A stretch of DNA of 64,000 bases from Eledone cirrhosa (GCA_964016885.1 OZ024744.1:45198001-45262000); one strand, 5' to 3'. Counted from the first letter of the stretch, positions 5,328-47,183 are shown. Program-made: numbers and translations. The notes: generated by a model from the sequence alone, not told the origin.

Positions 5328-5412
5328 GCCTTTCATCCTTACGGGGCCGATAAAATAAAGTACCAGTAATACACTAGGTGATTGCTGGCCTTGTGTCAAA
5401 CGTAGAAACAAT
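5328..5412 (+). mobile_element. SINE 3' fragment (mirror ~55705-55790)
   Basis: GCCTTTCATCCTTACGGGG...GATAAAATAAAGTACCAGTAAT...GTAGAAACAAT. Confidence 0.75.
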
Positions 5413-6043
5413 TATTCCAATGGCAATAAAGATGGAGCGCATGGACCTGAACAAATAAAGACCCTCGAAAACCATGATCAGACAAGGAAAATGGTCAGTA
5501 TAAGAACAATATTGAGGGGCTAACATCGGTCAGCATCACTCGTGATTTAGCCAATCTCTTTATCATATGTTTGGATATGACACTCAAAGAACGAGTAGCC
5601 AAGAACCATTTAGCCCTAAATATGTTCTCCCATTATGTAGAGGTTATCTGTACAGTAGTATAGACATGCCGCTAAAGAAATCATCAAGGGACTAGAAATA
5701 AACGGTAAAAATCATTCAGCAAATAAATACCCCTCCATCCACTAGAGTATTAAAATAGACTGCCCAAACTACAGACTACCTGTTTTAGACACACAACTCT
5801 GTATTCTTCTTGTCGTGTCCACAAGAGTGTCAGTTACAAAGCTTGGTTAGATGTAGTTCCGCCACAGCTGTCCTTTCTCATTAAACTCTGTCACGTCCAA
5901 TGTTGTGCAGGGATGTTCCAGCAGGGGTCATATCAGGAGGTGCCACGCAGTCTGTGGTTTGATGCCGCAGTCACACACAATGTCCCTATCCTTTAAATAT
6001 CCCCATTTTGCAATATTGATATGTATATATGTATGTATGTATG

Positions 6044-14148: not shown

Positions 14149-14182
14149 TCTTAACGTTTCGGACGCTAGTTCTTCATCAGAA

Positions 14183-14184
<2 letters not shown>
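14149..14184 (-). ncRNA. Minimal type I hammerhead ribozyme with a stem II mismatch
   Basis: Minus strand TCTT-CTGATGA-A-GAAC-TAGC-GTCC-GAAA-CG-TT-AAGA, inside a ~125-bp module (14062-14186) flanked by (TA)n. Confidence 0.7.
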
Positions 14185-14254
<70 letters not shown>

Positions 14255-14257
<3 letters not shown>

Positions 14258-17200
14258 ATAAAGTATGACCCCGATGGCAGAGCTCAAGCCGTTTTGACGG
14301 CTACTTCTGGACTAAATTAGAATTTTTAGTGTGGTAAAAAAATAGCCGAACTTTTCAAGGGGTACTTCCTTATATGGGGAGATTGTAGTTGTCAAGAGGA
14401 TTCGTCAAAATTTGTTGTAAACTCAAATAAGCCTATCATGGCAGTGGGTGGTGGTGGTGGTGGTGGTGGCAGAACGTGCCTGTAGAACAATGAGGGAGTG
14501 GGTGGAGCCGGTCAAGCGTTGAAAGTGAAATCTATACGGCAAATTCTAAGGAATGTGTATGAAAGTAGGCCAGAGGAGGTAGGCGAAAAAAGGTTTCTGG
14601 AGAAAATAGAGGAAGGGACCTTATAGAATGGGTAAATCAATTGAGATTTGGAGACAATAAAAAACAATTAAAAAAATAAGAGAAAAATATATAAAAATAT
14701 AAAATTGGATAGTGAGAAGTGATAAAAAACAAAAACTATGGAGTCTAAAACAGCTGCCATATTGTTGGTGTTGCCTCTTCAGCCAATGCTATAGATTGAG
14801 TTGAGAATAGAAGATACTAAATAAGAATTATTGAAATTGTAGAATTGGGGAGTAAAAAGTAATATAAAATCTCTGGGATCTAACACAGCTGCTATGATTA
14901 GTTAGTGTAGCGTATTCGGCCAATGCTATCTTTAAATTACTGGGGTGGGGGTACTGAGGCTACAGAGGTCCGATGGGCTGCCTCGGGGTAGGCGAAATGG
15001 GGAAAAAAAGAACGAGGAAGAAGATCGGTTGTGGAAGGAAGTGATAGGAGGAGACAAAGGGAAGAAGAAAACATAGAGGAAAAGAAAAAAGGTAAAACTA
15101 CCTATGTAAGCTGGGGTTTCCCCTATATTATTCGGCAAGTGGGGTGTTTCAGCTCTTGTCTACCCACCCGGATCGTTAGGGGGTTTGAGGGCGAGGTAAG
15201 TCTTACACAATCTGTGTTTCCATGCAGTTACCAGTTCGTCTTTTTTGTTTAGGAGTTGATCCTTCGTAAACAGCATTTGTAATGTTTCCTCCGAGCATAA
15301 GTTACACGGACGGCGTCCTCCCGTGTAAGAGTTAGCTCTGGACAGTAAGCTCCAAGTAAGATTGTAAATTATATTATTATCTTGGAGGTCCCAGATGTGG
15401 TCCGAAAGTGTAGTGGCTTGTCGCCGGACCGAATTTCGGAACGTATGTCGGTGTTGATAGGCCGGGTCTTAAAGTCACAAGCGGTTAATCCTATATAAGC
15501 TTTGTTGGAGGTGTCCGTCCTCACGTTGCATTGGTAGATCACGTTACGTTCTCGGCATCTGTTATTGAGGGGGCACGTAGATCTATCAGGGCAGTTACAC
15601 CTCCTGGTCGGCTCTCCACTAATGTCTAGGTTGTTTCTTCCATAGGAGTTGATTTTTTCGTTGTTTGAGGAGACTATGTTTTGTGCGAAGTTAGGTGTGG
15701 TGCTGTAGGAGAGCTTGATAATGTTTTTGTTGATTATATTGTGGTAGTGGTGTTGTTGTGGGAAGTATTTTTCGAGGACCCTAAAGAAGATTTTCCCGAT
15801 AAGTGTTGCTATCTCGGCATTATGGGGAGGATTGAACCACGTTACGTGGCGAGAGCGGAGGCGTCGCCTGCACGTTCCCCTAAGGGAAGCTGGATAAAAA
15901 GATATTTCCTCCCGGAAGCCACTCCGCTTGAGGGTCTGGTTGTAATGAGGCGCATGTTCGTCGAATATCTGCTCATTAGCGGACAAACGAGATATGCGGA
16001 GGGAGATGTTTTTAAACAGGTTATTGGTGATGTTTCTAGGATGGTTAGTGCTGCGGTGGATGTAGTGCAGGTTGTCGTTTGGTTTCCTGTAAGGGTAGTA
16101 CAGATCAGTTTCGAGGTTGAGGGTAACGTCCAGGAAATTGACTCGGGTTAGGGACGTTTGTAGGGTGATTTTGAATCCCCAGTCCCGGAAGAAGTTGATT
16201 AGTTGTTTACGGACCCGGTCTGTACTACTGGAGTTGTACTATTTGAGGGTTAGGAGTCCATCGTCTCAGTACAATCCACCGCCAAATGCAGGAAATATTT
16301 CGTTGAGTTTAAATAGTAGGAATAATCCTATAAGATCGGTGACCTCGGCTGAATCGGTCGCGCCCATAGAGACGTCGAAACGAGGAGTCGGGAGCTCTCT
16401 TTAGGACTGTCTTCCTGGCGTGGAGAATGATATTTCTTTCCTGGTTGGTGATGGGTGTGAGTGTTTTGGCAAAGTCCAAGGCGGCTGTAAGGAGCGCTAA
16501 GGTAATAGATGCATAGTAACTCTCTATGTCAAACTGGATGAATTTTGTGTCCCGTTTGTCCTCAATATTCCTGAACCATGAGATTACTTCCTGGGTGCTG
16601 ACCCATAGGCCAAGTGTCGCGTTTTGCTTAAATTTTGGTATAAAGCGGTCTAGGATCTTTTCACTAATTCTCTCTATATCCGACTTCGTCGGGTTTAAAA
16701 GCCTTATGGATGGTTTGCGGTCGAAGTTGGATTTGTGGTCCTTCAGTGTGAAGTAGGTGGTCTGTGGGTCGAGGGATTCAGTGCGGTTTGCGACCCTGAG
16801 GCTGGAGGTAATGTGTTGTCCATCTAGTTTTATGTCCTCGATAATTGAATGGTTAGCCTTTTTATGGGTAGAGTTTAGGCTGCTCCTGATCAGTGTGTTA
16901 TATCTGTCCGGGTTGACGAAATAGAGGTTTCAAGTTTTGTCCGAGTGCACCAGGATGTCGTTGGCGCTTTCATACTCCGTTATTTTGCTACGGAACTGTT
17001 GTAGGAATCTGTTGTGTCTGGGTTTGAATTTAATACCCTTGACCAGTTGGAAAAGGTCGTTCTCGATGGGTGAGAGCATAGGGTTAGGTGGGGAAGATTT
17101 GTAGGTATTGAATCCGAATCTCTCCTTGGTGTCGAAGTCCTGGTTGTCGCGGTATCTATCGTAGAAAAATGTTCTCCATCTTAGTCTTTTCGCAAAAAGG

Positions 17201-18810
17201 TCGGTTTTTTTGCATGAGCTTCCGAAGGTAAAGTTTTCTCGGTGGAATTGGAATGTTCTTGGTGGAGGAGTCGATATTGTGTTTTCGCATGGTGTGGGTA
17301 AACAAACTTGAGCTGGGTGGAAAAGTCAGGATATGGCGTGGTAGGGTCGGAAAGTGCTCTACTGCGGAGGTAGGATCTAAATAACGAAGGAGTTGTGGTA
17401 AGCAACCAGATGGGGAACCGACCAGGAGGTGTAACTGCCCTGATAGATCTACGTGCCCCCTCAACAATAGATGCCGAGAGCGTAACGTGATCTCCCAGTG
17501 CAACCTGAGGACGGACACCTCCAACAAAGCTTATATAGGATTAACCGCTTGTGACTTTAAGACCCGGCCTATCAACACCGACATACGTTCCGAAATTCGG
17601 TCCGGCGACATGCCACTACACTTTCGGGCCACATCTGGGACCTCCAAGATAATAATATAATTTGCAATCTTACTTGGAGCTTACTGTCCAGAGCTAACTC
17701 TTACACGGGAGGACGCCGTCCGTGTAACTTATGCTCGGAGGAAACATTACAAATGCTGTTTACGAAGGATCAACTCCTAAACAAAAAAGACGAACTGGTA
17801 ACTGCATGGAAACACAGATTGTGTAAGACTTACCTCGCCCTCAAACCCCCTAACGATCCGGGTGGGTAGACAAGAGCTGAAACACCCCACTTGCCGAATA
17901 ATATAAGGGAAACCCCAGCTTACATAGGTAGTTTTACCTCTTTTCTTTTCCTCTATGTTTTCTTCTTCCCTTTGTCTCCTCCTATCACTTCCTTCCACCA
18001 CCGATCTTCTTCCTCGTTCTTTTTTTCCCCATTTCACCTACCCTGAGGCAGCCCATCGGACCTCTGTAGCCTCAGTACCCCCACCCCAGTAACTTAAAGA
18101 TAGCATTGGCCGAATACGCTACACTAACTAATCATAGCAGCTGTGTTAGATCCCAGAGATTTTATATTACATTTTACTCCCCAATTCTACAATTTCAATA
18201 ATTCTTATTTAGTATCTTCTATTCTCAACTCATTCTATAGCATTGGCTGAAGAGGCAACACCAAGAATATGGCAGCTGTTTTAGACTCCATAGTTTTTGT
18301 TTTTTATCACTTCTCACTATCCAATTTTATATTTTTATATATCTTTCTCTTATTGTTTTATTGTCTCCAAATCTCAATTGATTTACCCATTCTATAAGGT
18401 CCCTTCCTCTATTTTCTCCAGAAACCTTTTTTCGCCTACCTCCTTGGCCTACTTTCATACAGATTTCTTAGAATTTGCCGTATAGATTTCACTTTCAACG
18501 CTTGAGCAGCCCCACCCACTCCCTCATTGTTCTACAGGCAAGTTCCGCCACCACCACCTCCCACCCACTGCCAGGATATACTTATTTGTGTTTACAACAA
18601 ATTTTAACCAATCCTCTTGACGACTACAATCTTCCCATATTAGGAAGTACCTCTTGAAAAGTTCGGCTATTTATTTACCAGACTAAAAATTTTAATTTAG
18701 TCCAGAAATAACCGTCAAAACGGCTTGATCTCTGCCGTCGGGGTCATACTTTTTCCTATTGCCCACCCTTCTACTCTAAGTATTGAGTACTCTGGTGCGT
18801 TATGGTCATA
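14255..18810 (-). mobile_element. Penelope-like element with inverted pseudo-LTR (left arm; right arm keeps only ~45296-46338)
   Basis: Broken ORF ~15250-17290 on minus: STKNIPIP start, GLY*DDGL RT motif near 16260, WFNPP, IKLSYS, NVIYQC...YIGLT (GIY-YIG). 14255-15611 is repeated inverted at 17418-18759. Confidence 0.9.
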
Positions 18811-18815
18811 TATAT

Positions 18816-19441
18816 TTATGAAGGGCGGGTAAAATCCCGAGATCCATGGACGAGTTCTCTCCAGCGGTCTCCGGCCCTCATTATCGCTGCCATGTCCTGC
18901 GTCTCCAACAGACCAGTGGCTGTCCTCAGGGCATCAACATACGTTAACTTCGGTCTTCCTCTTCCAGTGTGTCCATGTAGGGGCTCCCACAGGATCACTG
19001 AATGCAGTGTCAACTCTGAATGTCGGTGAGCATGTACAGCTAACCTCAGTCTCCTTTGTTGTCACTTTTGAGCTGATATTTGGGAGGCTCCCGTACAGCT
19101 CTGAGTTCTTCATCATCAGAGTATACTGATTGATGTTCAGAGCCATCTCCAGCATTCTCGTGTAGCACCCATCCAGAATATTAAGAACCCAGAGAAGATT
19201 ACTAATGTAGGCGGGAAGCCGCTATAATTGGTTGAGGACTTCCTGTATTTGGGAGCAAAGATTGGGAATACGGAAGATGATGTGGTCGAGAGGAAAAGCA
19301 AAGCCTGGGCGGCGTACCACAGCTTGAGATTGGTGTGGAAGTCGGACCTTCGTAAAGACCTGAAGAACTGCCTCTACGTTGCTGTAGTGGAGTCTGTGCT
19401 GCTGTATAGGTCTGAGACTTGGACACTGACCAAGAAACTCA
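18816..19441 (-). mobile_element. 5'-inverted, 5'-truncated RTE/RTEX-like LINE with 11-bp TSD
   Basis: Plus segment ~19181-19441 encodes VEDFLYLG...VESVLLY..ETWTLTKKL; minus segment 19180-18816 continues ILDGCYTRML...WEP..HG..GRP. TSD GTCATATATAT at 18805-18815 and 19442-19452. Confidence 0.85.
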
Positions 19442-19876
19442 GTCATATATATATATATAATCCCAGAAACCATAGACAAAACTATAACCCTACTAACAAA
19501 AACCAAAGATCCCCGAACACAAGGCAGGACCTGATCCGCAGATCACAACCCACACAAAACCTATTCCAAAACCGTAGACCCCTGCCCACACAGAGCCTGT
19601 TCCAAAACCGTAGATCCCAACCCACACAAAGGAACAAAATCTACAACCCGGACTATCAACAAACCGAACCTCAATACGTCCGAAACTTCTATACAAGACC
19701 ACACAACAACAGCGGAAATACCATTAGATATAATAATACCATTGAAATACCATTAGATATAAATACCATTAGATATAATAATACCATTGAAATAGCATTA
19801 GATATAATAATACCATTGAAAAAACATTCCAGAAAAATAATTTTTTAGACCAAGGCTACAGTATTCACGACACCCG

Positions 19877-22147
19877 GTGGTACAAACCGATTTTGAAAAA
19901 CTGAAAATAATTAACCTTTCAAATACAAACCTCTCAGCCCAACAAGTAAAAATTCTCTCCAAAGGACTGAAATTCACACCAACACCACAATACTCTAACC
20001 CCAATGAGATAAATGACGATATCTCACACTTCTGTAGAAAATTACGTCTCACAGAGGAATTCTTTGACAAGGAGAATAACGACGAATCAATTGTACGGAA
20101 TAAAAGCAGTTACAACCCAACAAAAGGTAGAAACACAGTTCTGGACAAATTTTGTGATCACATAGCTACCTTCCCATACCATGAACTACCGCAACCTAAA
20201 CCCAAACCCAACACGAGTCGAAGGGAATGAGAGATTATCCATGAACTAAAAAACAATACGGACATTATAATTAGGGAAGCGGACAAGGGAAGTACTGTTG
20301 TCATTATGGAGGCTGAAAAATATAAAAATTCTATGTTCTCTCTCTTACAAAATACTAATTACTATGAAAGAGTAAAAAAGTACCAGCAATCAAAAATAAT
20401 GACCAAATTAAACACACTGATTTATCGATACCAGGAAGACCTAACTAAAAAGGAACGCGATTATTTAACAAATTTTGAATACAAAACCAGCAACCTTTAC
20501 GGACTTCCGAAGATCCACAAGTGTAAAATAATCAACGATGCCTGTAAACAATCCACCTCAGCCTGCGTGAACACACAATACCCCACATACCTTAAATTAA
20601 GACCAATTGTAGCGGGCCCACAATGTGAAACACACAGACTGAGCAACTTTATAGACATACTACTGAAGCCAATAGTGAAACACATACCAAGCCTTGTAAG
20701 AGACGATCTGGACCTCTTAAACCACCTCCCCAAACATGTCAACAACGACACTATTATTGTGTCCTTCGATGTAGTGAATCTCTACACAACGATCCCGCAC
20801 CAATACGGACTAGAAGCAATAGGATTCTGGCTAGAGAAATATCCCAATGAGATACCTGACAGAATAGAAAAAAGCTTCATCACCGAGGGATTAAAATTCA
20901 TCTTACAGAACAACTTTTTTGATTTCGATGGCAATACTTACAAGCAAATATCGGGGACTGCGATGGGTACAAAAGCCGCTCCAACTTATGCCAACTTAAT
21001 CATGGCATACTTAGAAGTCCAGATATATGAACAGTCCAAATCAAAATACGGATTGAACTTCCACAAATATTTATCAGAGAATTGGAAACGCTACTTGGAT
21101 GATTGCCTCATTCTTTGGACCCACACACTCGACCAACTGAAGGATTTCAAAAACTTAATAAACGGCATCAATAACCACATCCAATTCTCAATGGAATACA
21201 GCCAAGATCAACTCCCATTTCTGGACATCTTATTCTTAAAAAAAGACACAAATATCGAAACTGACATACACTACTAACCAACAGATTCCAAACAATATCT
21301 GCTATTCACCTCCAGCCATCCAAAGCACACGAAGACGAACATTCCTTTTAACCTAGCAAGAAGAATTTGCACAATTGTCTCCAATTATGAAACGCGAAAT
21401 AAAAGACTTCAAGAGTTAAAGGAAATTCTACTCGAGAGAGAGTACCCACTATTACTAATAAATAATGGAATAGAAAGGGCTAAAGCAATAGGCATTGATG
21501 AATTACGGAAACAGAAACAAATTCAAGGTACGTCCAATATTCTATCATATATCTCAACACACAACCCAAGAAATGCGGAAGCTTACAACACTATTCACAA
21601 GAACACCCCACTACTAAAACAAAACCCAAGAATGAAAAAAGCCCTTGAAACACACAAAATAATCAAAAGCAAAAGACAACCAAAATCACTGAAAACATTA
21701 CTCACCAATGCCAAATTACCTACCACAAACCCACAACCAAGTATCAAAAAATGTGGTCGCTCTAATTGTGGAACCTGCACTCCCCTCATTGAAGGCAACA
21801 CGTATACCTTTAAATCAGGACAAAATTTTACTGTAAAAAATCACTTCACTTGCTCATCAAAAAATCTACTTTATGCCATTAAATGTAAAGGATGCAATGA
21901 AGATTATATAGGACAAACTAAACTCACACTCAGAAACAGAATGATAGTTCATTGCCAACAATTACGAGATCCAACCACGAGACAGATACCACTAAGTGCA
22001 CATCTAGACATTTGCGCAAGTAATAAGATACCCAAATTCCAAGTCTTCCCATTTTACCTTTGCGCTAACAATACAACAGAACAAATACGAATAAATAAGG
22101 AAAATATGTTTATTCAAAAATATAGACCAGCATTAAATATGGTTTAA
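19877..22147 (+). pseudogene. Penelope-like RT-GIY-YIG ORF, one frame with two premature stops
   Basis: ORFs 19877, 20306 and 21632 share a frame. Motifs LSKGLKF, EADKG, YGLPKIHK, SFDVVNLYT, GTAMGT, RYLDD, NLLYAIKC..C..YIGQT. Stops at 20228 and 21275. Right arm keeps only 45018-45295. Confidence 0.93.
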
Positions 22148-23721: not shown

Positions 23722-24605
23722 TTATATATATATAAGAAAAGAGTTATTTAATTTGTTGGTTATTCAACAAATATTTTTATAACAGATTCGAAGCACTGTC
23801 AGGTTTTCTTCTGGAGTATATCAATAATATTAATAAATGGAAACTATCTTTATAAAACCATATTTATTTTATTATATATATTTCAAGGGTACCAACATTT
23901 TTAGAATATATAGACATTGCAAATCCATACACATTAACACATTCATAGATATAAGGAATGCTATCTAAATGCATATACAAAAGAATTTTTATCTTAGAAA
24001 ATACGTAATGTATGATACCATAAAATCACATATATTTTTACATATATCTTAATTAGAATATTTTTTAAAGTAAATTCTAGAATAAACTGTAAATATAACT
24101 TAACTATTTTAACTAAGAAATATTGGAGTTATCTTTTCCTTTATAATGTAACACGCTTACACATTTCTTCTAAGTAACTACTAAACTTTACATAAATATT
24201 AACATTTTTTGTATAATTTCATTAACTTCATAAATTTTGTAAATGTATTCCTATCTTGATGCAATTATTGGATGTACAAAATAATCTTCTATAATAAAAT
24301 AGAACTACTTCCTTTTTCTCAAACATACATTGAAAGGGCAAACAAGAAATTCATCGTAACTATATATAAAAAATATTTAAATAATCTATCCATTAATAAA
24401 GACAACATATATACTCACCAAAATTATTCATATAAATATAAATAAAAATATAAAAAAGACATAAAGGGATGGGTTGACAACGAAAGGGGGAAAATATAAT
24501 AAATATATATATATGTATGTAAAAGGTAAACAGAAATATCAACACAATCGGTACAGTATATGGAAGGGATATATTAGATTAACGTTTGATTTAGCAGGAA
24601 GAGGG

Positions 24606-24641
24606 TCTTAACGTTTCGGACGCTAGTCCTCCATCAGAAGA
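24606..24641 (-). ncRNA. Minimal hammerhead ribozyme with mutated core, CUGAUGG (mirror 42516-42551, +)
   Basis: TCTT-CTGATGG-A-GGAC-TAGC-GTCC-GAAA-CG-TT-AAGA in a second copy of the ~125-bp module (24521-24645). Confidence 0.6.
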
Positions 24642-24715
24642 AAGAATGAGAAATAAAATAGATTAAGGGGACGGGTGGGATGGAATTGGAAAAAATGTCT
24701 TTAGATAAAAATAAT

Positions 24716-28453: not shown

Positions 28454-28786
28454 GTAATAAATTTGAAGACCAAAATCCAAAGAGGGCTCAATAAGGATAA
28501 ATATGTATCAAATATATAAGAACCGTAGAGCAAATATTTATAAAAATAACAGATTAAAGTTTAAGCAAAGAATCGCTGCTTTCACCCTTAACGGGATCTT
28601 ATGAAACTAACAAAGTCAATCTGTGAACGCAGAAGTGAATATTTCAAAAACGTTGCAACCGGAGGAAGACAGAAAGACGATACTTTGGTTCGTGGAAACG
28701 TTCGCTGGCTAAGAACGGGAAAAAACGAATATAATACGTCATTATTTGGAGCGGTGAAAAACAATTACACGCAAAGACAGAACTGT

Positions 28787-28838
<52 letters not shown>

Positions 28839-28862
28839 GTAAACAGAAATAACAACACAATC

Positions 28863-30739
28863 CTGGCTTTTAAGTCCAGCATTAGATTTGCACGCTCTGC
28901 ACCAAATGTGACGGACAAAAAGTGTGTCCTCTATTGCATTTATTGGGTCAGTTTGTGGGATGTCATCCTTATGTGCCCTCATATGCCTTTTAAGACCAGA
29001 GATTGATTTGCACATCTTTTTGCACACCACACATGTTGTCTCAACTAGCATTGTAGGGATAGTTGGCGTTTCATGTGATTTTAAATGAGTGATATACCCA
29101 GATTTAGTGAGCAGTAAATGACCACACACCTCACAAATCTACCTCCCTGTGTTCTTATTGAGATTTATACTATGGCTTTTTCGAAGCTCACGTTTAAGCT
29201 TTTCATGACCAAGAGGTCTTTCTTCAAACATTCTGCAGCCTTCATTCACATGTCCTCTCCATTTACCCCTCTTTAAAGCAAACATTTCCCAGTTATGAAC
29301 TTCAAACTGTAGATCTTTAAGGTTGTTTTTGTGCAATCCTTATATCTTTTTCATGGTTTGTGCTGAAGGCGTTTCCCAGTGTGCAATTGACTGTAAAATA
29401 TTTGTTTTGGGAGTCTTTTCTCATTCATGCGAACAACATGGCCTTCCTAGCGTATTTGAGAGGATATGGATGTAGATTCAATGCTCGTGCAACTAGCATC
29501 TATAAGGATTTGAGTGTCCGGTATTTTTGTTACCATTTGATATTTAAGATTCGTCTTAAACGCTTTTGATTAAAGTGTTCAAGCAGTTAAGGTGTCTACG
29601 ATATACTGTCCACGTTTCGGAAGAGTACAACAGACCACTCAGAATGTAGACTTTGTACACACTAATCTTGGTCTTGATAATGATGCCATGATCCGCCCAC
29701 ACTCGCATTTCAAGTTTTTCGAAGGCTACAGAGGCCTTCTGAATGCGGAGGTGTATTTCTGCATCCAGTTAACCATCCGTTGATAATGCACTACTCAGTT
29801 AAACGAAAGTGTCAACTACACCCAACCTAATTCCATGCATCATCATATTTGGCTCAATGTATGCTTCTCCTGGTGATGGGGTGAATATTACCTTGGTCTC
29901 TTTTAGATTAATTTTCATATCAAAGACATTACATGAACCTGCAAAACAATCCATGTCATCTTGAGAGTGAGCTAAAAAGACAACATCATCTCCATACAGG
30001 AGTACTTTAATTAATATTTGGAACACCATGGACTTGAAATTGAACCTTCTTAGGTCAACATTCTTCCTAACTTGCAATAGAATACCCTTTGCACAGTCCT
30101 AGAATGCATGAGTCAGCATCACAGCAAAAACTATTGAAAACAGCTTCACGTCATCATCAACTGGGATTTCATTGGACAATTCTCCATTCAAGACAACCAG
30201 CCTTCATATTTCTGTGCAGTCCGACGAACATATCAATAAATTTGAGTGGGGACCCTAATATCTTCCACAGTTCCCCTCTGTTCACCGTATCAAAGGCCTT
30301 TGTCAGATCAACAAAACCTGATACAGAGCAACCCCTGCTCAATACATTTCTCCTGAACCTGCCTTGCAGAGAACATCATATCAATCGTCCCTCTGCCAGA
30401 TCTAAAGCTACTTTGTGATTCATGGATTACTGTAGGACAAATGTTCTCTATCAATCTGTTCAACAATAATCTAGCAAGAACTTTGTCCACAGACTCCAAC
30501 AGAGTGATGCCATGGTAGTGATCACAGATTCCTTAATCCTCTTTAGCTTTAAACGAGGTCACCAAGATACCATCTATCCAATCTTGTGGTATAGGAACTC
30601 CAGCCCAACCCTCTGTGATGAGATGGAGTATTGTTTGTGTTATGTTTTTATCACCAACCTTTAACAATTCCACAGGGATTCCACCCGTGTTTAACTGATT
30701 GGTGGTAATTTTAACTTCATTACAATCTGGTAATCGTTC
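28863..30739 (-). pseudogene. Decayed RTE-like LINE, RT plus C-terminal C2H2 zinc fingers
   Basis: ESQSSFRSGRGTIDMMF, FVDLTKAFDTV, LLYGDD; C..C..H..H fingers (CVVCKKMCKSISGLKRHMRAH). Confidence 0.85.
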
Positions 30740-31224: not shown

Positions 31225-34200
31225 CTACTGCATCACCAAGTTGTCTTCCTCAGCAGTGTACCGCGGTCGCAGCTGTTCCCAGTGTCGTCTCCACACCGGG
31301 CCATGAGGTATAACCTTAACGTTGAAGCAGCGAGTACCCAATGACTTCTTAATGATTGCTGGTACCCATCGGGGATCTTTGTCTCGGCGAGGTCCGTAGT
31401 ACAGTGCATACACAGGATCTCCAGCCTTGTACTGCCTGGTAACCTTAGCGACACCTGCCGAGTCCGGAGTCATCTGAGACTTATGTGCTTCCTTAGACTG
31501 CTTGCCTTGAGCGATGTGTGCTGGCGAGGGCAGCAGAGAATCAATCCTTGTCCGTATCTGCCGGTGATTCAAAAGTTCACTCGGAGAGAATCCACTGGAT
31601 GTCGGTGTTCTCCGGTACTGCATCAAGAACTCTTGAAGTGCTCGCTTCGGCGGAAGAGAAGTCTTCCTCAGAGCTTGTTTGAAAGTCTGCACCAAACGTT
31701 CCGCTGCTCCGTTGGTAGCTGGGTGGTAAGGTGCCCCTGTCAGGTGCGTGATCCCACGTTCTTTGCACCAGCTCTGGAACTCCTCAGAAATAAAAGTTGG
31801 TGCGTTATCGGTGACTAGCGTGTGAGGAAATCCGAAGTGCGCAAAGTCTTCTTCAAGCAGATCTAAAGTGGCTCTGGAGGACATGGATGACGTAGGATGA
31901 ATGCATGGATACTTGGAATAAGCATCCGTGATCACCAACCAATTACTGCCCATGAAATTTATTGCGTGGTCCAGGTGAAAGCGGCTCCACGGCTTTTCAG
32001 GTAACATCCATGGGTGAACTGGAGACTTGGATGGCTGGTTTTGATGTTCATCACACGAATCACATTGTCGACTGGTTTTCTCTATAGCAGCATCGATACC
32101 AGGCCAATAAACAGCAGTTCTTGCCAATTGTTTCATGCGCTCCATGCCAAAGTGTCCGAGATGCAGAAGATTGAGGATCTTTGGCTGTAAGCTATGTGGA
32201 ATCACAACTCTCGATCCATGGATAAGGCATCCGTGGCAGATATTGAGTGAATCCGATAACTTCCGGAACTTATTGACTTCGTCATTGATCTCAGTATTCT
32301 TTGGTGGCCAGCCTTCACGGACGTAGCGTATCACTGTAGATATCACTGGATCTTTCCCTGACTCTTGACGGAGGACGTTAGCATCGATAGGCTGGACTTG
32401 AAGACTGAGAGCTTTGATGGCGCACACCATGTCCATGTCTTCACCATTTTCCTTCCTGTCGAAGTCGATGTCATTACCAAATGGCAAGCGACTGAGGGCA
32501 TCTGCATTGCCATGATCCGCTGTTTTCCGATATTCGATGGTGTAGTCAAACTGGTTCAACCACAGGGCCCACCGTGCTAGTCGGTTAGCAGCGAGAAGTG
32601 GCGTCCCTTTCCTCGGACTGAACAGTGATGTCAGTGGCTTGTGGTCAGTTACGAGTATAAACTGATGTCCGTACAGATACTGATAGAACTTCTGCAAGCC
32701 AAATATGATGGCCAGGGCTTCCTTTTGAATTTGGCCGTATTTCCGCTGTGCAGAAGTAAGAGTCTTGGACACATTGGATATTGGGCGCTCGCTTCCATCA
32801 GGATAGCGATGAAACAGGACTGCTCCAATACCAACGTTTGACGCGTCGCAAGCCAGTCCCAAAGTTTTGTTTGGATCGAAGTGTATCAGAACTCGATCCG
32901 ATGAAAGCACATTTTTCGACTGATCAAAAGCTGACTGTTCTTCATCTCCCCACTTCCAAGTAGTCGTTTTTTTCGTAAGGCAATAGAGTGGCTCTGCCAT
33001 GCTGGCCAGGTTTGGGATAAACTTTCCATAGAACTGAACTGAACCCAGGAAAGACTTCAAGCTTGAGACGTTCGTTGGAGGTGGCATCTTTAAAACTGCT
33101 TCGACCTTGGATCCCTTCGCGATCCCTTCAGCCGACAAGGTGTGTCCAAGGTATTCCACACTGGGTAGTGCAAACTGGCACTTGTCACGGCGACATCTGA
33201 GTCCTTTGTCGCACAGACGTGTGAGCAGACATTTTAGGTTGTTCAGGTGATCGTTTGCATCTTTCCCACTGACGAGCATCTCGTCCTGGAAGACGGCCAC
33301 ACCAGGTAGATCTTGAGTCAGGTTTTCCATGATCTCCCGAAAGTAACCAGGTGCTGACTTGATTCCGAAAGGGAGTCATTCCTGCAGGAGCACCCCATGG
33401 AGAGTGCTGAGTGCAAGCCTGCGTTGACTTTCTGGAGCCAGCTTGATCTGATTATAGGCATCAGCAAGATCAATCTTTGTGTATCCGAATCCACCTCCGA
33501 GCTTCTGCATCAGTTCCTCTGGGAGTGGCATTGGATGACGATGATCTGCAAGTTGGTCATTAATTCCCACAGAGTAGTCACCACAAATCCGTAGTTTGGG
33601 CTTCAGGTTGCCTGAAGTATGTGCTTTACGAATCTGTACCACTGGCGTTCCGTATTCGTTGAACTGTACTGGCTTCCAGATTCCTTTGGCGTTGCCTTCT
33701 TCGTAACCTTTGGCCAGGTCATCACGTAGAGCAAACGGGACCGCGCGTGCCTTGTGAAAGACCGGTGTCACGTCCGACTTGAACTTCACTTCCAGTTCGA
33801 AGTCATTAAGACATCCAAATTCTTGCTTGAAGAGATCTGGGAATTCATCACACATGTTGTGACAATCTCGTTGCATGGAAATATAGGGCTCATTTGAGGT
33901 CTTTGGATGCATCACTTCTGCACCCTCACTCTTGGCCTGGCTGTCTATGCTTTTCAATCCTAGAGTATTGTCCACGGAAATTCCCAGAGTCTGGATAGCG
34001 TTTCGTCCCAGCAAATTAAGATCAGGGATCTTGGTGACGATGTAGGGTATTGAATTCCGTTTACCGGTCGTTGGATCCTTGGTTTGGCCCATGAAAGTTC
34101 CCAGAACGGGCAAGTCGTGCTTGCTGGCAGATTCAAACCGATGTTTGACATCTTGCAGCTTCGGTTTTCCTAATTGTTTCCAAACTGACAAGGAAACAAA

Positions 34201-35131
34201 GTTGCCTGTAGTAGCTGTGTCCAATTCCATTGTGAAAAGTCTGTTCTGGATTGTTATTGGCACATTCAAACTATGAGTATCGTGGGGAACTTCACCAAGG
34301 ATCGCCTTGACTAGCTCAGCTTTCGTGATTCTTTTCACGTAATTCTGTGAGCGATGATTACGTTGCTGATGTTGTTTCTTTCTACACACCGCTTGCAAAT
34401 GTCCCTTTTTGTCACAAAAATGACATTTGGCTTCTTTGAAGGGGGGGCAGTCTGTCGCTTTGTGGGCCTTTCCACATCGGTAGCACATCTCCTGGTCTGT
34501 GGAATAAGACTGCTGATGGTTCTTTCGAGGACCCTTGTTCTTGTTCTGCTGGACCTTGTAGACTTGCTTGGTTTTGGAACCGTAAACAGTTTCCTTGGTA
34601 ACCTTTGCTGCGTCTTCGGTCCCGATGGAAACTTGGACAGCACGGGCGAAATCTAGTTCTGTATCCTTGATCTTGAAAATAGCCTTCAACACAGCTTCAT
34701 TATTGACAGAACATATAAATCTCTGTCTTAGAGCTTCATCTTGTGGATTTGTGATCGAAGGAAAATCACAGGTAGTTGCATCCTGACGTATGCGTGCTGC
34801 CAGCTCCTGGAGAGTTTCGCCTGGCTTCCGTTGCATGTCACTCCAGAACTTGAAACGTTCTCTCACAATGAAAAGTTTTGGGTCGAACTGTTCTTTCATG
34901 AAGTCAACAATTTCGTCCATTGTCAACTTGTTGATATCCTTAGGCGGATTTTGTTGAGCAGCCAGATTTGCAAGTTGTTTGTAGATAGCAGCCGTCTGAT
35001 TAGTCAGGAACACTTGTGCCATGCGTTGCTCGGGTACAGCGTTAGCAGCCACAAACGTGCAGAATCTTGACCAGTAATCAGGCCATAGTTCTGTTGTTGA
35101 ATCAAAAGCAGCAAATGGTGGGATGAATGCT
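31225..35131 (-). mobile_element. Gypsy (Mag-like) gag-pol, 5'-truncated, single frame with one premature stop
   Basis: Two CCHC knuckles (CYRCGKAHKATDC, CHFCDKKGHLQAVC), protease LDTA, RT (RICGDY, KIDLADAY, FQDE), RNase H (CDAS, TDHKPL), integrase (HLGH, TDN, GAAERLV). TGA at 33376-33378 lies in frame between the two ORFs. No 5' LTR or PBS. Confidence 0.95.
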
Positions 35132-35390
35132 GAAAAAACAACATAAAGACTGGTTTGATGATAATAATCAGGTTATCAACCAACTGTTAAAGAAAAAACA
35201 TGCTCTGCCTAAAAATGCTTCTGGAAGAGTACCCTATGAATTTAACTACTATTAAAAAGACATATAAAGAATATAAAGCCACCTTAGAACGTGAGCAAAA
35301 AAGCCTTAAAAATAAATGGTGGTTGAAGATCTCTGAAGATATTCAAATTGCTTATAGCGCAAAGTATTCAAAACTGTTTTATAGTCTTTT
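35132..35390 (+). pseudogene. Orphan upstream fragment of an RTE-like LINE in the palindrome spacer
   Basis: KKQHKDWFDDNNQVINQLLKKKH...LKNKWWLKISEDIQ...KLFYSLL, the linker region that precedes the RT in RTE-like ORFs. Confidence 0.7.
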
Positions 35391-36843
35391 GCTTACAGCC
35401 AAAGATCCTCAATCTTCTGCATCTCGGACACTTTGGCATGGAGCGCATGAAACAATTGGCAAGAACTGCTGTTTATTGGCCTGGTATCGATGCTGCTATA
35501 GAGAAAACCAGTCGACAATGTGATTCGTGTGATGAACATCAAAACCAGCCATCCAAGTCTCCAGTTCACCCATGGATGTTACCTGAAAAGCCGTGGAGCC
35601 CCTTTCACCTGGACCACGCAATAAATTTCATGGGCAGTAATTGGTTGGTGATCACGGATGCTTATTCCAAGTATCCATGCATTCATCCTACGTCATCCAT
35701 GTCCTCCAGAGCCACTTTAGATCTGCTTGAAGAAGACTTTGCGCACTTCGGATTTCCTCACACGCTAGTCACCGATAACGCACCAACTTTTATTTCTGAG
35801 GAGTTCCAGAGCTGGTGCAAAGAACGTGGGATCACGCACCTGACAGGGGCACCTTACCACCCAGCTACCAACGGAGCAGCGGAACGTTTGGTGCAGACTT
35901 TCAAACAAGCTCTGAGGAAGACTTCTCTTCCGCCGAAGCGAGCACTTCAAGAGTTCTTGATGCAGTACCGGAGAACACCGACATCCAGTGGATTATCTCC
36001 GAGTGAACTTTTGAATCACCGGCAGATACGGACAAGGATTGATTCTCTGCTGCCCTCGCCAGCACACATCGCTCAAGGCAAGCAGTCTAAGGAAGCACAT
36101 AAGTCTCAGATGACTCCGGACTCGGCAGGTGTCGCTAAGGTTACCAGGCAGTACAAGGCTGGAGATCCTGTGTATGCACTGTACTACGGACCTCGCCGAG
36201 ACAAAGATCCCCGATGGGTACCAGCAATCATTAAGAAGTCATTGGGTACTCGCTGCTTCAACGTTAAGGTTATACCTCATGGCCCGGTGTGGAGACGACA
36301 CTGGGAACAGCTGCGACCGCGGTACACTGCTGAGGAAGACAACTTGGTGATGCAGTAGACACTGTTTTTGAATTTGCAACAGATCACCCGATGGAGATCT
36401 CGGAAATCGTGTCACTAACTCCAAGACAGACCAGACCCAAGACCTTGTTGCCCGTTCCAGAGTATGGACCAGACAATCGAAGACGGTCCAAGAGAACTCG
36501 TAAACCCCCAGAGAGACTTTGCTGTTGATGCTTCTTTTGTTGCATCAATTTCGGTGGGGAGGTGTTGTATGGACTGGGAATCGAACTCACAACCTCATTG
36601 TTGTATGGACTGTGAAATTCGTTTTATTCAATTTATACGTGCTCACACATTTGCATATGAATCACGTGACCTGGGCAGTCAGTCAGCGTTGGTATTAAAA
36701 ACTCGGTCACAGACTGCTGCGGTGACTTACTTTATGTTATTCTGCTACTGTGAGGAGGGGCGTTTTGGTTGTTTCGTACAATACACAAATTATTTGATAT
36801 AACTCGTTGTGTTTTCTCTGCGAGTACCGAGAGGAATACAACA
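35391..36843 (+). mobile_element. Gypsy integrase, PPT and 3' LTR (right-arm copy; LTR 36563-36843)
   Basis: Mirror of 30740-32192; PPT 36553-36562. Confidence 0.93.
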
Positions 36844-42105: not shown

Positions 42106-43435
42106 GCGTATGTGGGTACGTATATATATATGTGTGTGTGTGTGTGATTGTGTGTGTGTGTATGTGTGTGCGTGTATATATATATATATATATATAAAAG
42201 CTGTCAACATGAATGGACCTATTATTTTTATCTAAAACGGTGGATTTTTATCTTAAGGGCGGTGGATTGGCAGTATCAGTAGAGGGTCGGACCCCATGCT
42301 TTCCAGCATAGTTACGTCCCTTTACGATCTGAGTTCAGATCCCGCCGAGGTTGACTTTGCCTCTCATCCTTACGGGGTCGATAAAATAAAGTACCAGTAA
42401 TGCACTGGGTAATTGCTGGCCTTGTGCCTAAAGTAGAAACAATTATTTTTATCTAAAGACATTTTTTCCAATTCCATCCCACCCGTCCCCTTAATCTATT
42501 TTATTTCTCATTCTTTCTTCTGATGGAGGACTAGCGTCCGAAACGTTAAGACCCTCTTCCTGCTAAATCAAACGTTAATCTAATATATCCCTTCCATATA
42601 CTGTACCGATTGTGTTGATATTTCTGTTTACCTTTTACATACATATATATATATTTATTATATTTTCCCCCTTTCGTTGTCAACCCATCCCTTTATGTCT
42701 TTTTTATATTTTTATTTATATTTATATGAATAATTTTGGTGAGTATATATGTTGTCTTTATTAATGGATAGATTATTTAAATATTTTTTATATATAGTTA
42801 CGATGAATTTCTTGTTTGCCCTTTCAATGTATGTTTGAGAAAAAGGAAGTAGTTCTATTTTATTATAGAAGATTATTTTGTACATCCAATAATTGCATCA
42901 AGATAGGAATACATTTACAAAATTTATGAAGTTAATGAAATTATACAAAAAATGTTAATATTTATGTAAAGTTTAGTAGTTACTTAGAAGAAATGTGTAA
43001 GCGTGTTACATTATAAAGGAAAAGATAACTCCAATATTTCTTAGTTAAAATAGTTAAGTTATATTTACAGTTTATTCTAGAATTTACTTTAAAAAATATT
43101 CTAATTAAGATATATGTAAAAATATATGTGATTTTATAGTATCATACATTACGTATTTTCTAAGATAAAAATTCTTTTGTATATGCATTTAGATAGCATT
43201 CCTTATATCTATGAATGTGTTAATGTGTATGGATTTGCAATGTCTATATATTCTAAAAATGTTGGTACCCTTGAAATATATATAATAAAATAAATATGGT
43301 TTTATAAAGATAGTTTCCATTTATTAATATTATTGATATACTCCAGAAGAAAACCTGACAGTGCTTCGAATCTGTTATAAAAATATTTGTTGAATAACCA
43401 ACAAATTAAATAACTCTTTTCTTATATATATATAA

Positions 43436-43503
<68 letters not shown>

Positions 43504-46500
43504 GTGAGGTTTTTTTTACAAAATGAAAAATAACCGAGGTGTCCTACACGAGTGAAAGTATAAAGAAAAAGAGATGAAATCGAAAATGCAACTGGAGTCT
43601 TTTTTTTTTTTTTCTTTTTTTTTTTTTAAATATATATATTTATTTGGTTCCTTTACCGGTTTCGCAGTTCTTCTGCTTTTCAAAAGGTGAGTTGAGATGG
43701 AATGTCTGTCGTTTTTCTCACATCTGGTTGGTCTCTGAATGTTACTTGTTTTATATGGAAAAAGTGGCTCGAAATGCCAGGTTTTTCGAGAAGTAATTTG
43801 ATTGGTTTGTCAATAATTATAATAAATCTCGCGCCAGTTCGCGTTACAATAGTTCTTCAAATAAGAGGGGGGGGGGGTTGTCACAGGTTGTTTTTTTTCA
43901 TATATGAGTGTTTGAATTTCTTTTTACTTGAAAAAAGGGGCTCACGAAGGCTTTTTTTTTATTGGTTATAAATGAAATTATGGCTGTCACGTGAACAAGT
44001 TTTCATTAAATATTCGTGCCCTTATTTGGAAATCCATTCTGTAGCCTTTTTAGAGAATTTTATGATAAGTGAAAGATAATGGTCAAGAGAAAGGGATGGG
44101 AGAATTGTTCTGGTTCAGTGAATATGGTTAGTTCGCTGGGGTGTCAGAATTCAGATTTTCTATTGAATAAAGAAAGTAAAGATATGTATGTTTATTTGTG
44201 TGCTTGTGTGTGTGTGTTTGAATTTCTTTACTTCAAAAAAAGGTGGCTCACGAAGGCTTTTTTTTAATAAACGTGATTTGATTGGTTATAAATGAAATTT
44301 GGCTGTCAGGTGAACAAGTTTTCATTACATTTTTGCGCCCTTATTTGGAAATCTATTCTGTAGCCTTTATAGAGAATGTTATGACAATGGAAAGATAGTG
44401 GTCAAGAGAAATGGGATTGGGAGAATTGTTCTGGTTCAGTGAATATGGTTAGTTCGCTGGGGTGTCAGAGTTCAGATTTTCTATTGAAGTAAAGATATGT
44501 ATGTTTATTTGTGTGCTTGTGTGTGTGTGTGTGTGTGTGTATTGGAAGATGATTCTATTAGTAGAAATGTGGGAGGGAGTTGTGTGTGTATGGGTGTTAT
44601 GTGTGTGTGTGCGAGTATGTTAAGATGGAGAGAATATATATTTTGTGTGTGTGTATATATGTGTGTAGGAAAGTGGTTCTATTAGTAGAAATGGGGGAGG
44701 GAGTTGTGGGTGTGGGGGTTGTTATGTGTGTGTATGGGTGTTGTGTGTGGGAGTATGGTTAGCATGTTAAGATGAAGAAAATATATATATATATTGTGTG
44801 TGTGTGTGTGTGTGTGTCTGTGTGTGTGTAGGAAAATGATTCCTTTAGTAGGAATATTTTAGAATGAACATATTTTCCTTAGTTATTCGTATTTGTTCTG
44901 TTGTATTGTCAGTGCAAACGTATGTTAAGGTTTATTTAGTTCGGGTTTTTATTTTCTAAAGTAGAAGGTGTTATGTGTGTGTGTGTATGTCATATTATGG
45001 TGTTGACATAATGTATATTAAACCATATTTAATGCTGGTCTATATTTTTGAATAAACATATTTTCCTTATTTATTCGTATTTGTTCTGTTGTATTGTTAG
45101 CGCAAATGTAAAATGGGAAGACTTGGAATTTGGGTATCTTATTACTTGCGCAAATGTCTAGATGTGCACTTAGTGGTATCTGTCTCGTGGTTGGATCTCG
45201 TAATTGTTGGCAATGAACTGTCATTCTGTTTCTGAGTGTGAGTTTAGTTTGTCCTATATAATCTTCATTGCATCCTTTACATTTAATGGCATAAACTTAC
45301 TGTCCAGAGCTAACTCTTACACGGGAGGACGCCGTCCGTGTAACTTATGCTCGGAGGAAACATTACAAATGCTGTTTACGAAGGATCAAATCCTAAACAA
45401 AAAAGACGAACTAGTAACTGCATGGAAACACAGATTGTGTAAGACTTACCTCGCCCTCAAACCCCCTAACGATCCGGGTGGGTAGACAAGAGCTGAAACA
45501 CCCCACTTGCCGAATAATATAGGGGAAACCCCAGCTTACATGGGTAGTTTTACCTTTTTTCTTTTCCTCTATGTTTTCTTCTTCCCTTTGTCTCCTCCTA
45601 TCACTTCCTTCCACAACCGATCTTCTTCCTCGTTCTTTTTTTCCCCATTTCGCCTACCCCGAGGCAGCCCATCGGACCTCTGTAGCCTCAGTACCCTCAC
45701 CCCAGTAATTTAAAGATAGCATTGGCCGAATACGCTACACTAACTAATCATAGCAGCTGTGTTAGATCCCAGAGATTTTATATTACTTTTTACTCCCCAA
45801 TTCTACAATTTCAATAATTCTTATTTACTATCTTCTATTCTCAACTCATTCCATAGCATTGGCTGAAGAGGCAACACCAACAATATGGCAGCTGTTTTAG
45901 ACTTTATAGTTTTTGTTTTTTATCACTTCTCACTATCCAATTTTATATTTTTATATATTTTTCTCTTATTTTTTTTATTGTTTTTTATTGTCTCCAAATC
46001 TCAATTGATTTACCCATTCTATAAGGTCCCTTCCTCTATTTTCTCCAGAAACCTTTTTTCGCCTACCTCCTCTGGCCTACTTTCATACACATTCCTTAGA
46101 ATTTGCCGTATAGATTTCACTTTCAACGCTTGACCGGCTCCACCCACTCCCTCATTGTTCTACAGGCACGTTCTGCCACCACCACCACCACCACCACCCA
46201 CTGCCATGATAGGCTTATTTGAGTTTACAACAAATTTTGACGAATCCTCTTGACAACTACAATCTCCCCATATAAGGAAGTACCCCTTGAAAAGTTCGGC
46301 TATTTTTTTACCACACTAAAAATTCTAATTTAGTCCAGTTTGGCATGCGTATGCATGATGAGCATACATTTTTGTATAAATATGTGTACGGGGTAGTTAC
46401 ATGTATATACACACACCGAACTGCATAAAACCTTTTGTATTTTCATTGGTCAATTTTGTTCCCAAACGGACCTGAAATTTTGAATTGTTGTTATTATCAA

Positions 46501-46509
46501 TAAATATAT

Positions 46510-46663
46510 TTCATTATTTCTGAAGACGGCGTATATATGTGTTGGTATGTATATTTAATCTTGATAGTTTGTATAATTTTGTATAATTTTGTACATAGAT
46601 CTGTTGAATATGCATGCCAATTCTAACACATATATATCCTAGAAACGATCGTTAAATAATGAA
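46510..46663 (+). ncRNA. Type I hammerhead ribozyme with greatly extended stem II (right arm only)
   Basis: TTCATTATTT-CTGAAGA-[~115-nt hairpin]-GAAA-CGATCG-TT-AAATAATGAA: perfect 10-bp stem I and palindromic stem III. Confidence 0.75.
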
Positions 46664-46857
46664 CTTTTTTTGTTTAATATAAGGAACTGTTTCATTGTTT
46701 TATTCATTATTTGTTTAATATTTTATCTTGACTCTGTATACCGTTTATCTTTCACCGAAAGTGATTTTTCATTACATCTCTTCTTTCCATGATATCCGGA
46801 ATACATTGAGTTCTTCATACGGATTGGACACTACCGTAAACTCTTGGTAGATTTATC

Positions 46858-46926
<69 letters not shown>

Positions 46927-46928
<2 letters not shown>

Positions 46929-46962
46929 TTCTGATGAAGGACTAGCGTCCGAAACGTTAAGA
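46927..46962 (+). ncRNA. Minimal type I hammerhead ribozyme, intact
   Basis: TCTT-CTGATGA-A-GGAC-TAGC-GTCC-GAAA-CG-TT-AAGA: stem I TCTT/AAGA, stem II GGAC/GTCC, palindromic AACGTT in place of stem III. Confidence 0.82.
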
Positions 46963-47047
46963 CCCTCTTCCTGCTATATCATGCGTTAACCTAATATGTA
47001 CCTTACATATACTGTACCGATTAGGTTGTTATTTCTGTTTACCTTTT

Positions 47048-47183
<136 letters not shown>

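Follow-up and report, generated by a model that had tools for sequence, protein, structure and literature searches.

The sequence analyzed is a window of 64,000 nt from the genome of Eledone cirrhosa (GCA_964016885.1 OZ024744.1:45198001-45262000). It is a large inverted duplication with its center near 33.8 kb and arms 98-100% identical. The duplication spans ~59 kb (window ~400-59700), and the spacer (32192-35391) lies within an LTR-type element with RT, RNase H and integrase. A 6.5-kb segment of the left arm (15350-21869), comprising the larger part of a Penelope-type RT/GIY-YIG element, is absent from the right arm. Weak C2H2 zinc-finger matches, under the Pfam cut-offs, are located at 28644-29138 on the minus strand.

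A first-pass annotation, made from the sequence, had proposed a right-arm-only insert of ~520 bp replacing ~50 bp of the left arm. Both parts agree with the assembly, in which the insert measures 522 bp and 51 bp stand at its place in the left arm (Table 1). The insert has no long match elsewhere within the window. A (TA)n repeat follows the insert in the right arm and the 51 bp in the left arm. The 51-bp sequence has a second, diverged copy in the window at ~18706-18759, and thus the left-arm state is the older one. Judged from the two arms, the insertion into (TA)n removed 51 bp of target at the 5' junction of the insert.

Table 1. Features of the insert and its target in window coordinates.
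Feature	Position	Strand	Remarks
Insert: 5'-truncated 3' end (pLTR + tail) of a Hydra-clade Penelope-like element	46339..46860	+	right arm only
51 bp of another element's end	14256..14306	-	in left arm, lost at right-arm insertion
AATAAA	46499..46504	+	kept here in A1-A4, seen in B and D, absent from C
Stem I 5' strand TTCATTATTT	46510..46519	+	10/10 Watson-Crick with 3' strand
Core CUGAAGA	46520..46526	+	CUG pairs with 46640-46642 in predicted rod
Domain II, 115 nt	46527..46641	+	C-A at 10.1/11.1, basal helix, 6-nt bulge, distal helix, apical stems
Core GAAA (46642-46645), palindromic stem III ACGAUCGU (dimer-type), GUU	46642..46653	+	predicted cut after 46653
Stem I 3' strand AAATAATGAA	46654..46663	+	
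Optional 134-nt tail	46727..46860	+	copies end at 46726 or 46860, both then (TA)n
(TA)n target	46861..46926	.	

Another repeat carries a second, minimal hammerhead 280 nt downstream (46927-46962, plus strand), with CUGAUGA, a 13-nt domain II, GAAACGUU and a 4-bp stem I. In its left-arm counterpart (14149-14184, minus strand), stem II is weakened by a change from G to A, and related sequences are also found at 24494-24642 and 42515-42663. A heterodimer of the insert's hammerhead with this short one at 46931 was ruled out by eye, as the stem I strands are not complementary.

The parent element

The sequence of the copies identifies the insert as the truncated pLTR-and-tail end of a young, ~7-kb Penelope-like element (PLE) of the Hydra clade. 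The own-genome search listed 41 matches, all 99-100% identical (40 of 1,457 candidates scored), in line with the recent mobility claimed in the first-pass annotation. The insert is not a stand-alone unit of ~520 bp but the end of a longer element: (TA)n directly follows 46860 in 29 of the 30 fetched loci, and apart from the window copy, 28 of 29 extend beyond 46339 on the upstream side.

Twenty loci were extended by 9 kb to reach the coding region. Upstream of the pLTR they contain ~4 kb of TA/TG-rich sequence, preceded by an ORF of ~813 aa with DKT, RWR, YRDD, CxCx5C, VY..YIG, CxxC and CxH, which are the diagnostics of Hydra (PMC8557442). As read from the motifs, this single ORF encodes an RT with YRDD followed by a C-terminal GIY-YIG endonuclease (VY..YIG). 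DKT replaces DKG in the context HSDKTGN, and the RWK counterpart, RVRWRAY, carries RWR, a conservative change. The linker CNCRNKANC is present in loci L034, L035 and L047, while L033 has its first C altered. The C-terminal CRLC and CNH are present and CCHH is absent, as judged by eye. Pfam gave no match on the two family ORFs scanned, and the clade placement was read from the motifs. The 120 homologues listed, with a named one from Argonauta, are 35-48% identical.

In L047, ~4.05 kb separate the stop codon from the element end, exceeding by itself the 3 kb below which Hydra elements tend to stay. About 3.5 kb of the same locus (5412-8900, oriented) are TA/TG microsatellite-like sequence with internal duplications and form an inherited part of the 3' region. 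In L033, a complete pLTR lies 150 nt ahead of the start codon. The two alternative ends of the copies, 46726 and 46860, are probably the two reverse-transcription start sites, by analogy with the Poseidon element of Anolis, for which two internal reverse-transcription starts were described to define the tail (Frangieh et al. 2024, PMC11167929).

Other affiliations were rejected. A stand-alone SINE, MITE or retrozyme does not fit copies that extend upstream to a coding element. Non-LTR retrozymes are short non-coding head-to-tail arrays, whereas here truncated copies of a coding element are scattered through the genome, many of them in head-to-head orientation. Naiad PLEs have an N-terminal endonuclease and no canonical hammerhead, whereas the endonuclease here is C-terminal.

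A hammerhead with a long domain II

The pLTR contains the elements of a type I hammerhead: the CUGAnGA...GAAA core, A15.1-U16.1, an NUH triplet and three stems, from which cleavage is predicted. The core halves CUGAAGA (46520) and GAAA (46642) around a long hairpin, the perfect 10-bp stem I and the palindromic stem III (ACGATCGT, 46645-52, ahead of the GUU ending at 46653) are all present as the annotation had described them. The basal helix of domain II (46528-41/46627-40) includes TATATATGTG at 46532-41 paired with CACATATATA at 46627-36. The distal helix of 17 bp pairs TTGGTATGTATATTTAA (46542-58) with TTGAATATGCATGCCAA (46604-20). The non-Watson-Crick positions of the long helix had been claimed to be three G-U pairs on the plus strand, and checking base by base located them at 46546/46616, 46550/46612 and 46556/46606. 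At 10.1-11.1 there is a C-A mismatch instead of the usual G-C closing pair. This position is C-A in groups A1-A3, U-A in A4, and U-U or G-C in group C (groups described below); U-U is a published tolerated mismatch here.

The further step from this strand bias to RNA structure stands in part. Domain II does fold more stably on the plus strand (-40.5 kcal/mol, against -18.4 on the minus strand), and the hairpin is more stable than shuffled sequences (z = -5.1; 0 of 200 shuffles as stable). Three of three G-U pairs on one strand say little by themselves, because chance would give this in one case of eight, and the G-U richness is specific to A1. The stem of a sister subfamily is nearly pure Watson-Crick (-35.4 on the plus strand, -34.2 on the minus strand), and thus G-U richness is not part of the architecture.

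Over the whole window, Rfam returned no match at gathering level; for 46300-47100, a threshold of E<=10 gave only low-complexity noise and none of the hammerhead families. With an invariant core and a covarying basal helix (see below), this accords with the expectation of an atypical hammerhead that length-limited searches miss. The abundance of such motifs in the genome was counted with stem III fixed as GAAACGATCGT, a spacing of 8-128 nt after CUGAnGA, and reversed-pattern controls. There were 127 motifs (control 8) with a domain II of 8-38 nt, 117 (control 13) with 39-68 nt, 1,470 (control 4) with 69-98 nt, and 1,293 + 9,563 (controls 1 and 3) with 99-128 nt; the length classes may overlap slightly, and other stem III sequences lie outside the count. 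The genome thus has >12,000 motifs with this stem III and a domain II of 69-128 nt, and long forms outnumber short ones ~100 to 1.

Sorting of 124 motifs from 120 fetched loci gave six groups by domain II: A, the window's lineage (95-116 nt), B (101-102 nt), C (95-98 nt, branched), D (97 nt), E (63 nt) and F (20 nt). Hydra-like ORF ends were found upstream of group A and D copies, and the link to the coding element is made for these two groups only. Group C copies (L111, L120, L122, L125-L128, L134, L139, L140) have two hairpins on an 8-bp stem and a stem I of 4 bp. Group D copies (L114, L116, L123, L132, L133, L135, L137, L156) show an apparent 10-nt insertion between the stem I 5' strand and CUGAUGA.

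As an outgroup, 78 metagenome loci encoding relatives were scanned, and 60 had a sense-strand hammerhead; the scanner also recovered the window motif. Domain II is 10-25 nt long in 59 of these 60 and 64 nt in one weak match. For published Hydra hammerheads, ~12-26 nt were counted from the rows of File S2 of PMC8557442, against 115 nt here. By these sequence comparisons, a long arm characterizes the family and exceeds that of relatives elsewhere by a factor of five to ten. Hydra elements are already known to carry hammerheads. No report of a domain II of 95-115 nt was found in the open literature, although the supplementary figures of PMC4209133 and Lunse et al. 2017 may hold longer forms.

Conservation was analyzed in an alignment of 29 of the 39 full-length group A motifs; the 10 omitted mostly had deletions or lost 5' flanks or were near duplicates. 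The core is invariant in all 29 aligned copies, as is the stem III palindrome, for which the searches had selected. The named structure pairs 84.7% of cells, compared with 79.9% in shuffles (0 of 500 reach it) and 21-49% when slid, and the covariation score is 0.172 versus 0.103. Two-sided changes affect 6 of the 13 pairs in the basal helix, 3 of the 17 in the distal helix and 3 of the 10 in stem I, a total of 12 that is matched by 25 of 500 shuffles; the relatedness of the copies inflates all these covariation measures. A core-anchored, alignment-free count gave the same register: after a shared C-C mismatch, A1 has G-U, U-A and A-U where A3 has G-C, G-C and G-C. RNAalifold returned neither the hammerhead nor the distal helix and chose a rod pairing instead. 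The annotation had named loss of core conservation among genomic copies as one half of the outcome that would speak against a ribozyme. The copies gave the opposite, an invariant core and a covarying basal helix.

Predicted rod, 5' ends and A>G differences

The lowest-energy fold of the monomer (46510-46663) is not the hammerhead; it pairs part of the core (-46.5 versus -43.1 with the core open). In RNA from 46513, CUG is predicted to pair with YAG and UUU with AAA, and domain II to be extended into a rod that ends exactly at 46513. The rod has a probability of 0.63-0.99 in six of six subfamily representatives, with a core-open fraction of <1%, and it is the same set of pairs that RNAalifold picked independently. 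These pairs use invariant core bases, and therefore their conservation is not independent support. The pairing requires UUU at the end of stem I, and this is missing from groups C and D. The active dimer is at -90.6 versus -84.0 for two monomers, and the best two-strand fold is a non-productive dimer that is lower still (-96.6); these energies leave aside tertiary contacts and magnesium. The monomer RNA is predicted to be inactive, with its core halves paired in the rod.

The 5' ends of genomic copies were counted by position in 80 regions of contig C1 with 93 motifs, taken from the 100 matches listed. In 30 of these 93 the copy starts 4-10 nt ahead of the core, 18 of them at exactly 7 nt (window 46513); 4 begin closer, 24 at 11-430 nt, and 35 reach the 450-nt limit. 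The start density is 0.058 per nt at this hotspot versus 0.0014 further up. The 30 hotspot copies come from 22 loci and do not amount to 30 independent events: 20 copies, from 12 loci, stand at junctions of the head-to-head type, and 6 have the same repeat upstream. These six A2 copies (L187, L195, L196, L197, L198, L204) start 7 nt before the core, joined to one same repeat end, and reflect either repeated template switching or one amplified chimera. In the junctions of L178 and L205, small stretches of stem I and core have been copied anew more than once, which suggests repeated priming at the template end.

In a downstream-anchored sample, overlapping and from the same part of C1, 12 of the 30 copies start at 46512-46519; no copy starts at 46654, where cleavage-site ends would pile up. 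Copies starting at the cleavage site were also sought among 557 motif matches and rejected: 27 of the 30 inspected are position-17 variants and 3 are junctions. Position 17 varies among U, A and C, and in those 27 the base before stem I is A or C, never G. A non-native G precedes the ATYATTT end in 10 of 33 non-palindromic junctions from 8 loci (p = 0.04 by copy, 0.11 by locus). For L1 and SVA, an extra G at the 5' junction was attributed to cap copying. Here it is a weak sign of a start site, as snap-back onto the rod would add the same base.

Base differences were compared on contigs between sequencing runs. Run X4 comprises 88 million letters of contigs from a sample other than that of the DNA-like run X1 and, like the other runs, is not recorded as RNA. 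It is probably RNA, to judge from a single-locus contig depth of ~3 to 384; the long pieces of X1 and X2 mostly have a depth of ~7-28. Among the rows listed, five positions show A>G in X4: 46620 (34%, 0 in X1), 46632 (5%, 0 in X1), 46634 (19%, 0.008% in X1), 46641 (18%, 0 in X1) and 46645, which is A15.1 (21%, 0.004% in X1). Each was seen on 9-29 contigs. Position 46636 is variable in X1 as well as in X4. In the assembly, the variants at 46641 and 46645 number 21 and 25 versus 11,050 (~0.2%), and the two positions are paired in the rod with probabilities of 0.75 and 0.53. Runs X5 and X6 have no A>G at the five sites. In the second long-arm family (group C, L120), 53 X4 contigs with low cover gave no run-specific T>C in the ribozyme among the 40 of 65 rows listed.

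UAG is the preferred context of ADAR, and 46641 stands in UAG. Ludwig et al. (1998) reportedly found NUH sites to be cleaved less well when position 15.1 is inosine. It is likely that the A>G differences in arm and core represent ADAR editing of the rod, including A15.1; no report of editing of a PLE hammerhead was found in the open literature. In four of the five G-U pairs of the two helices, G stands where sister subfamilies have A. Their fixation from edited RNA is unsupported, since the sites changed in X4 vary only at ~0.2% in the assembly.

A proposed locked ribozyme and its alternatives

The reading judged most probable, with some confidence, is that the pLTR/tail end of this Hydra-clade element carries a long-armed hammerhead that is locked as a rod in a single RNA and cut after GUU at 46653 only through a palindrome dimer or the element's protein. 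It takes family, copy number, copy structure and covariation from the genomic data and would work as follows. Transcription would start at ~46513 in the upstream pLTR, so that a leader of 502 nt would begin with the ribozyme (141 nt). The long arm would fold first, and the CUG/YAG and UUU/AAA pairs would extend it and keep the RNA uncut, so that reverse transcription from 46726 or 46860 could copy the RNA back into (TA)n. From these positions in the first pLTR it would yield mini-copies of 214 and 348 nt, and from the downstream pLTR long or randomly truncated copies. The window copy would derive from the downstream pLTR of a longer transcript, truncated at 46339 and with 51 bp removed at its 5' junction. 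ADAR would edit the rod, including A15.1, and lower cleavage further. Cleavage, needing the dimer or a protein, would strip the leader of these 141 nt with their cap and structure; that this serves translation is speculation by analogy. For the Anolis element, it has been published that the main template is RNA left uncut and that the hammerhead is assisted by protein (PMC11167929), both as proposed here.

The ends near 46513 are better explained by a transcription start, which is somewhat favored, than by snap-back during reverse transcription, where the new DNA folds back, switches template and yields head-to-head mini-elements, leaving the arm mainly as a template-switch signal. Snap-back is rather unlikely. 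It would account for the many junctions that are perfect palindromes centered 4-7 nt before the core, for 2 of 30 loci (L288, L305) that fuse the inverted core directly to the stem I 3' strand, and for the rod terminating exactly at 46513. However, the majority of hotspot copies adjoin unrelated DNA or another truncated copy, which is not the expected fold-back product. In addition, TCA+1T, which resembles an initiator, is kept in groups A, B and D, PLE starts were reported within the upstream pLTR, and L033 has its whole pLTR just before the ORF. Poly(A) cleavage behind AATAAA may be another source of 5' ends, but the spacing is just 8-9 nt and no added G is predicted. A similar doubt attaches to the view that the A>G differences reflect genomic variation at a small number of loci with strong representation, or arise in long duplexes of inverted copies, with no bearing on the local hairpin. 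The run type and sample of X4, the lack of replication in group C, the common head-to-head copies and the mixing of subfamilies in contigs at 80% likeness speak for this view. Against it, the five multi-contig X4-specific changes among the 40 rows listed are all sense A>G within 26 nt, with none T>C, the 9-29 contigs per site suggest mixed combinations, and the variants are rare in the assembly.

It is improbable that the ribozyme is active or neutral and its long arm simply tolerated, having grown by TA-repeat slippage and duplication, with any closed stem II sufficing and rod and editing as side effects. Domain II does vary freely among families (~20, 63 and 95-115 nt, as a single hairpin or branched), a 10-nt tandem duplication accounts for the growth from 105 to 115 nt, short-armed Hydra elements thrive elsewhere, and internally deleted copies occur. 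Mere tolerance would nevertheless leave unexplained that several families with unrelated domain II sequences are all at 95-115 nt, and that the apical stems TGAT/ATC and TGTA/TACA are almost invariant across subfamilies 67-84% identical. A11.1, mismatched in the hammerhead and paired only in the rod, is likewise kept in 35 of 36 copies of groups A1-A3. A microRNA-like or siRNA precursor, suggested by a ~30-bp stem with G-U pairs, is very improbable: the hairpin is bracketed exactly by the invariant hammerhead core at the usual hammerhead place of Hydra elements, its stem sequence turns over while pairing is kept, and Rfam has no match over it.

The proposed locked ribozyme can be placed among known systems. 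With Hydra-clade elements such as Hydra-1_Obim, which are described as C-terminal EN+ PLEs (Craig et al. 2021, PMC8557442), the family shares the protein motifs, the (TA)n target, tandem and inverted truncated copies, and a type I hammerhead with a CUGAnGA core and a short palindromic stem III near the 3' end. According to the same source, Hydra elements are generally <3 kb, a tendency, and PLE tails are 30-40 bp, whereas here the element is ~7 kb with a 4-kb TA/TG-rich 3' region and the tail is 134 nt. Hydra-1_Obim and the window family are different families, compared by eye. The longest domains II in File S2 of that source, ~50-55 nt or half of the length here, belong to PLE-X1_sMoe and PLE-X1_sTam, plant elements of another clade; a C-A at the base of stem II is also present in PLE-X1_cBra (File S2) and in metagenome locus L385.

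The minimal PLE hammerheads described by Cervera and de la Pena (2014, PMC4209133) are alike in pLTR location and in the palindromic 15.2-16.2 + loop 3, and are expected there to work as dimers with low activity. In contrast to their helix II of 6-8 bp with conserved G10.1-C11.1, the window motif has ~30 bp plus apical stems and C-A, together with a 7-10 bp stem I and the predicted core-sequestering rod. The Poseidon ORF is reported to start inside stem II (PMC11167929), whereas the AUG here is ~360 nt past the cut site, behind 10 leader AUGs. As predicted here, the HDV-like ribozymes of R2 and viral hammerheads, which are linked to the start of translation, are self-cleaving motifs in a leader before an ORF, but these are described to cut efficiently as monomers (PMC13725137), unlike the monomer predicted here.

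There is a slim chance that this hammerhead acts at the capped 5' RNA end as a switch under the control of editing and folding. With transcription starting at the rod's first base, the 115-nt arm would zip the two halves of the core together, ADAR would edit A11.1 and A15.1, and the host would set whether the RNA is cut, translated or copied, with >10,000 such motifs in one genome escaping Rfam and short-stem descriptors.

The in vivo role of PLE hammerheads is stated as an open question in PMC8557442 and PMC4209133. The family offers three testable handles on it: a predicted off-state, a candidate start located 7 nt ahead of the core, and a core nucleotide that is a candidate for editing. The off-state would explain how uncut RNA serves as the template. 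If rod and editing were side effects, what remains would be a known element with a natural domain II of unusual size. Length-limited searches undercount hammerheads, as long forms exceed short ones ~100 to 1 for one stem III in one genome.
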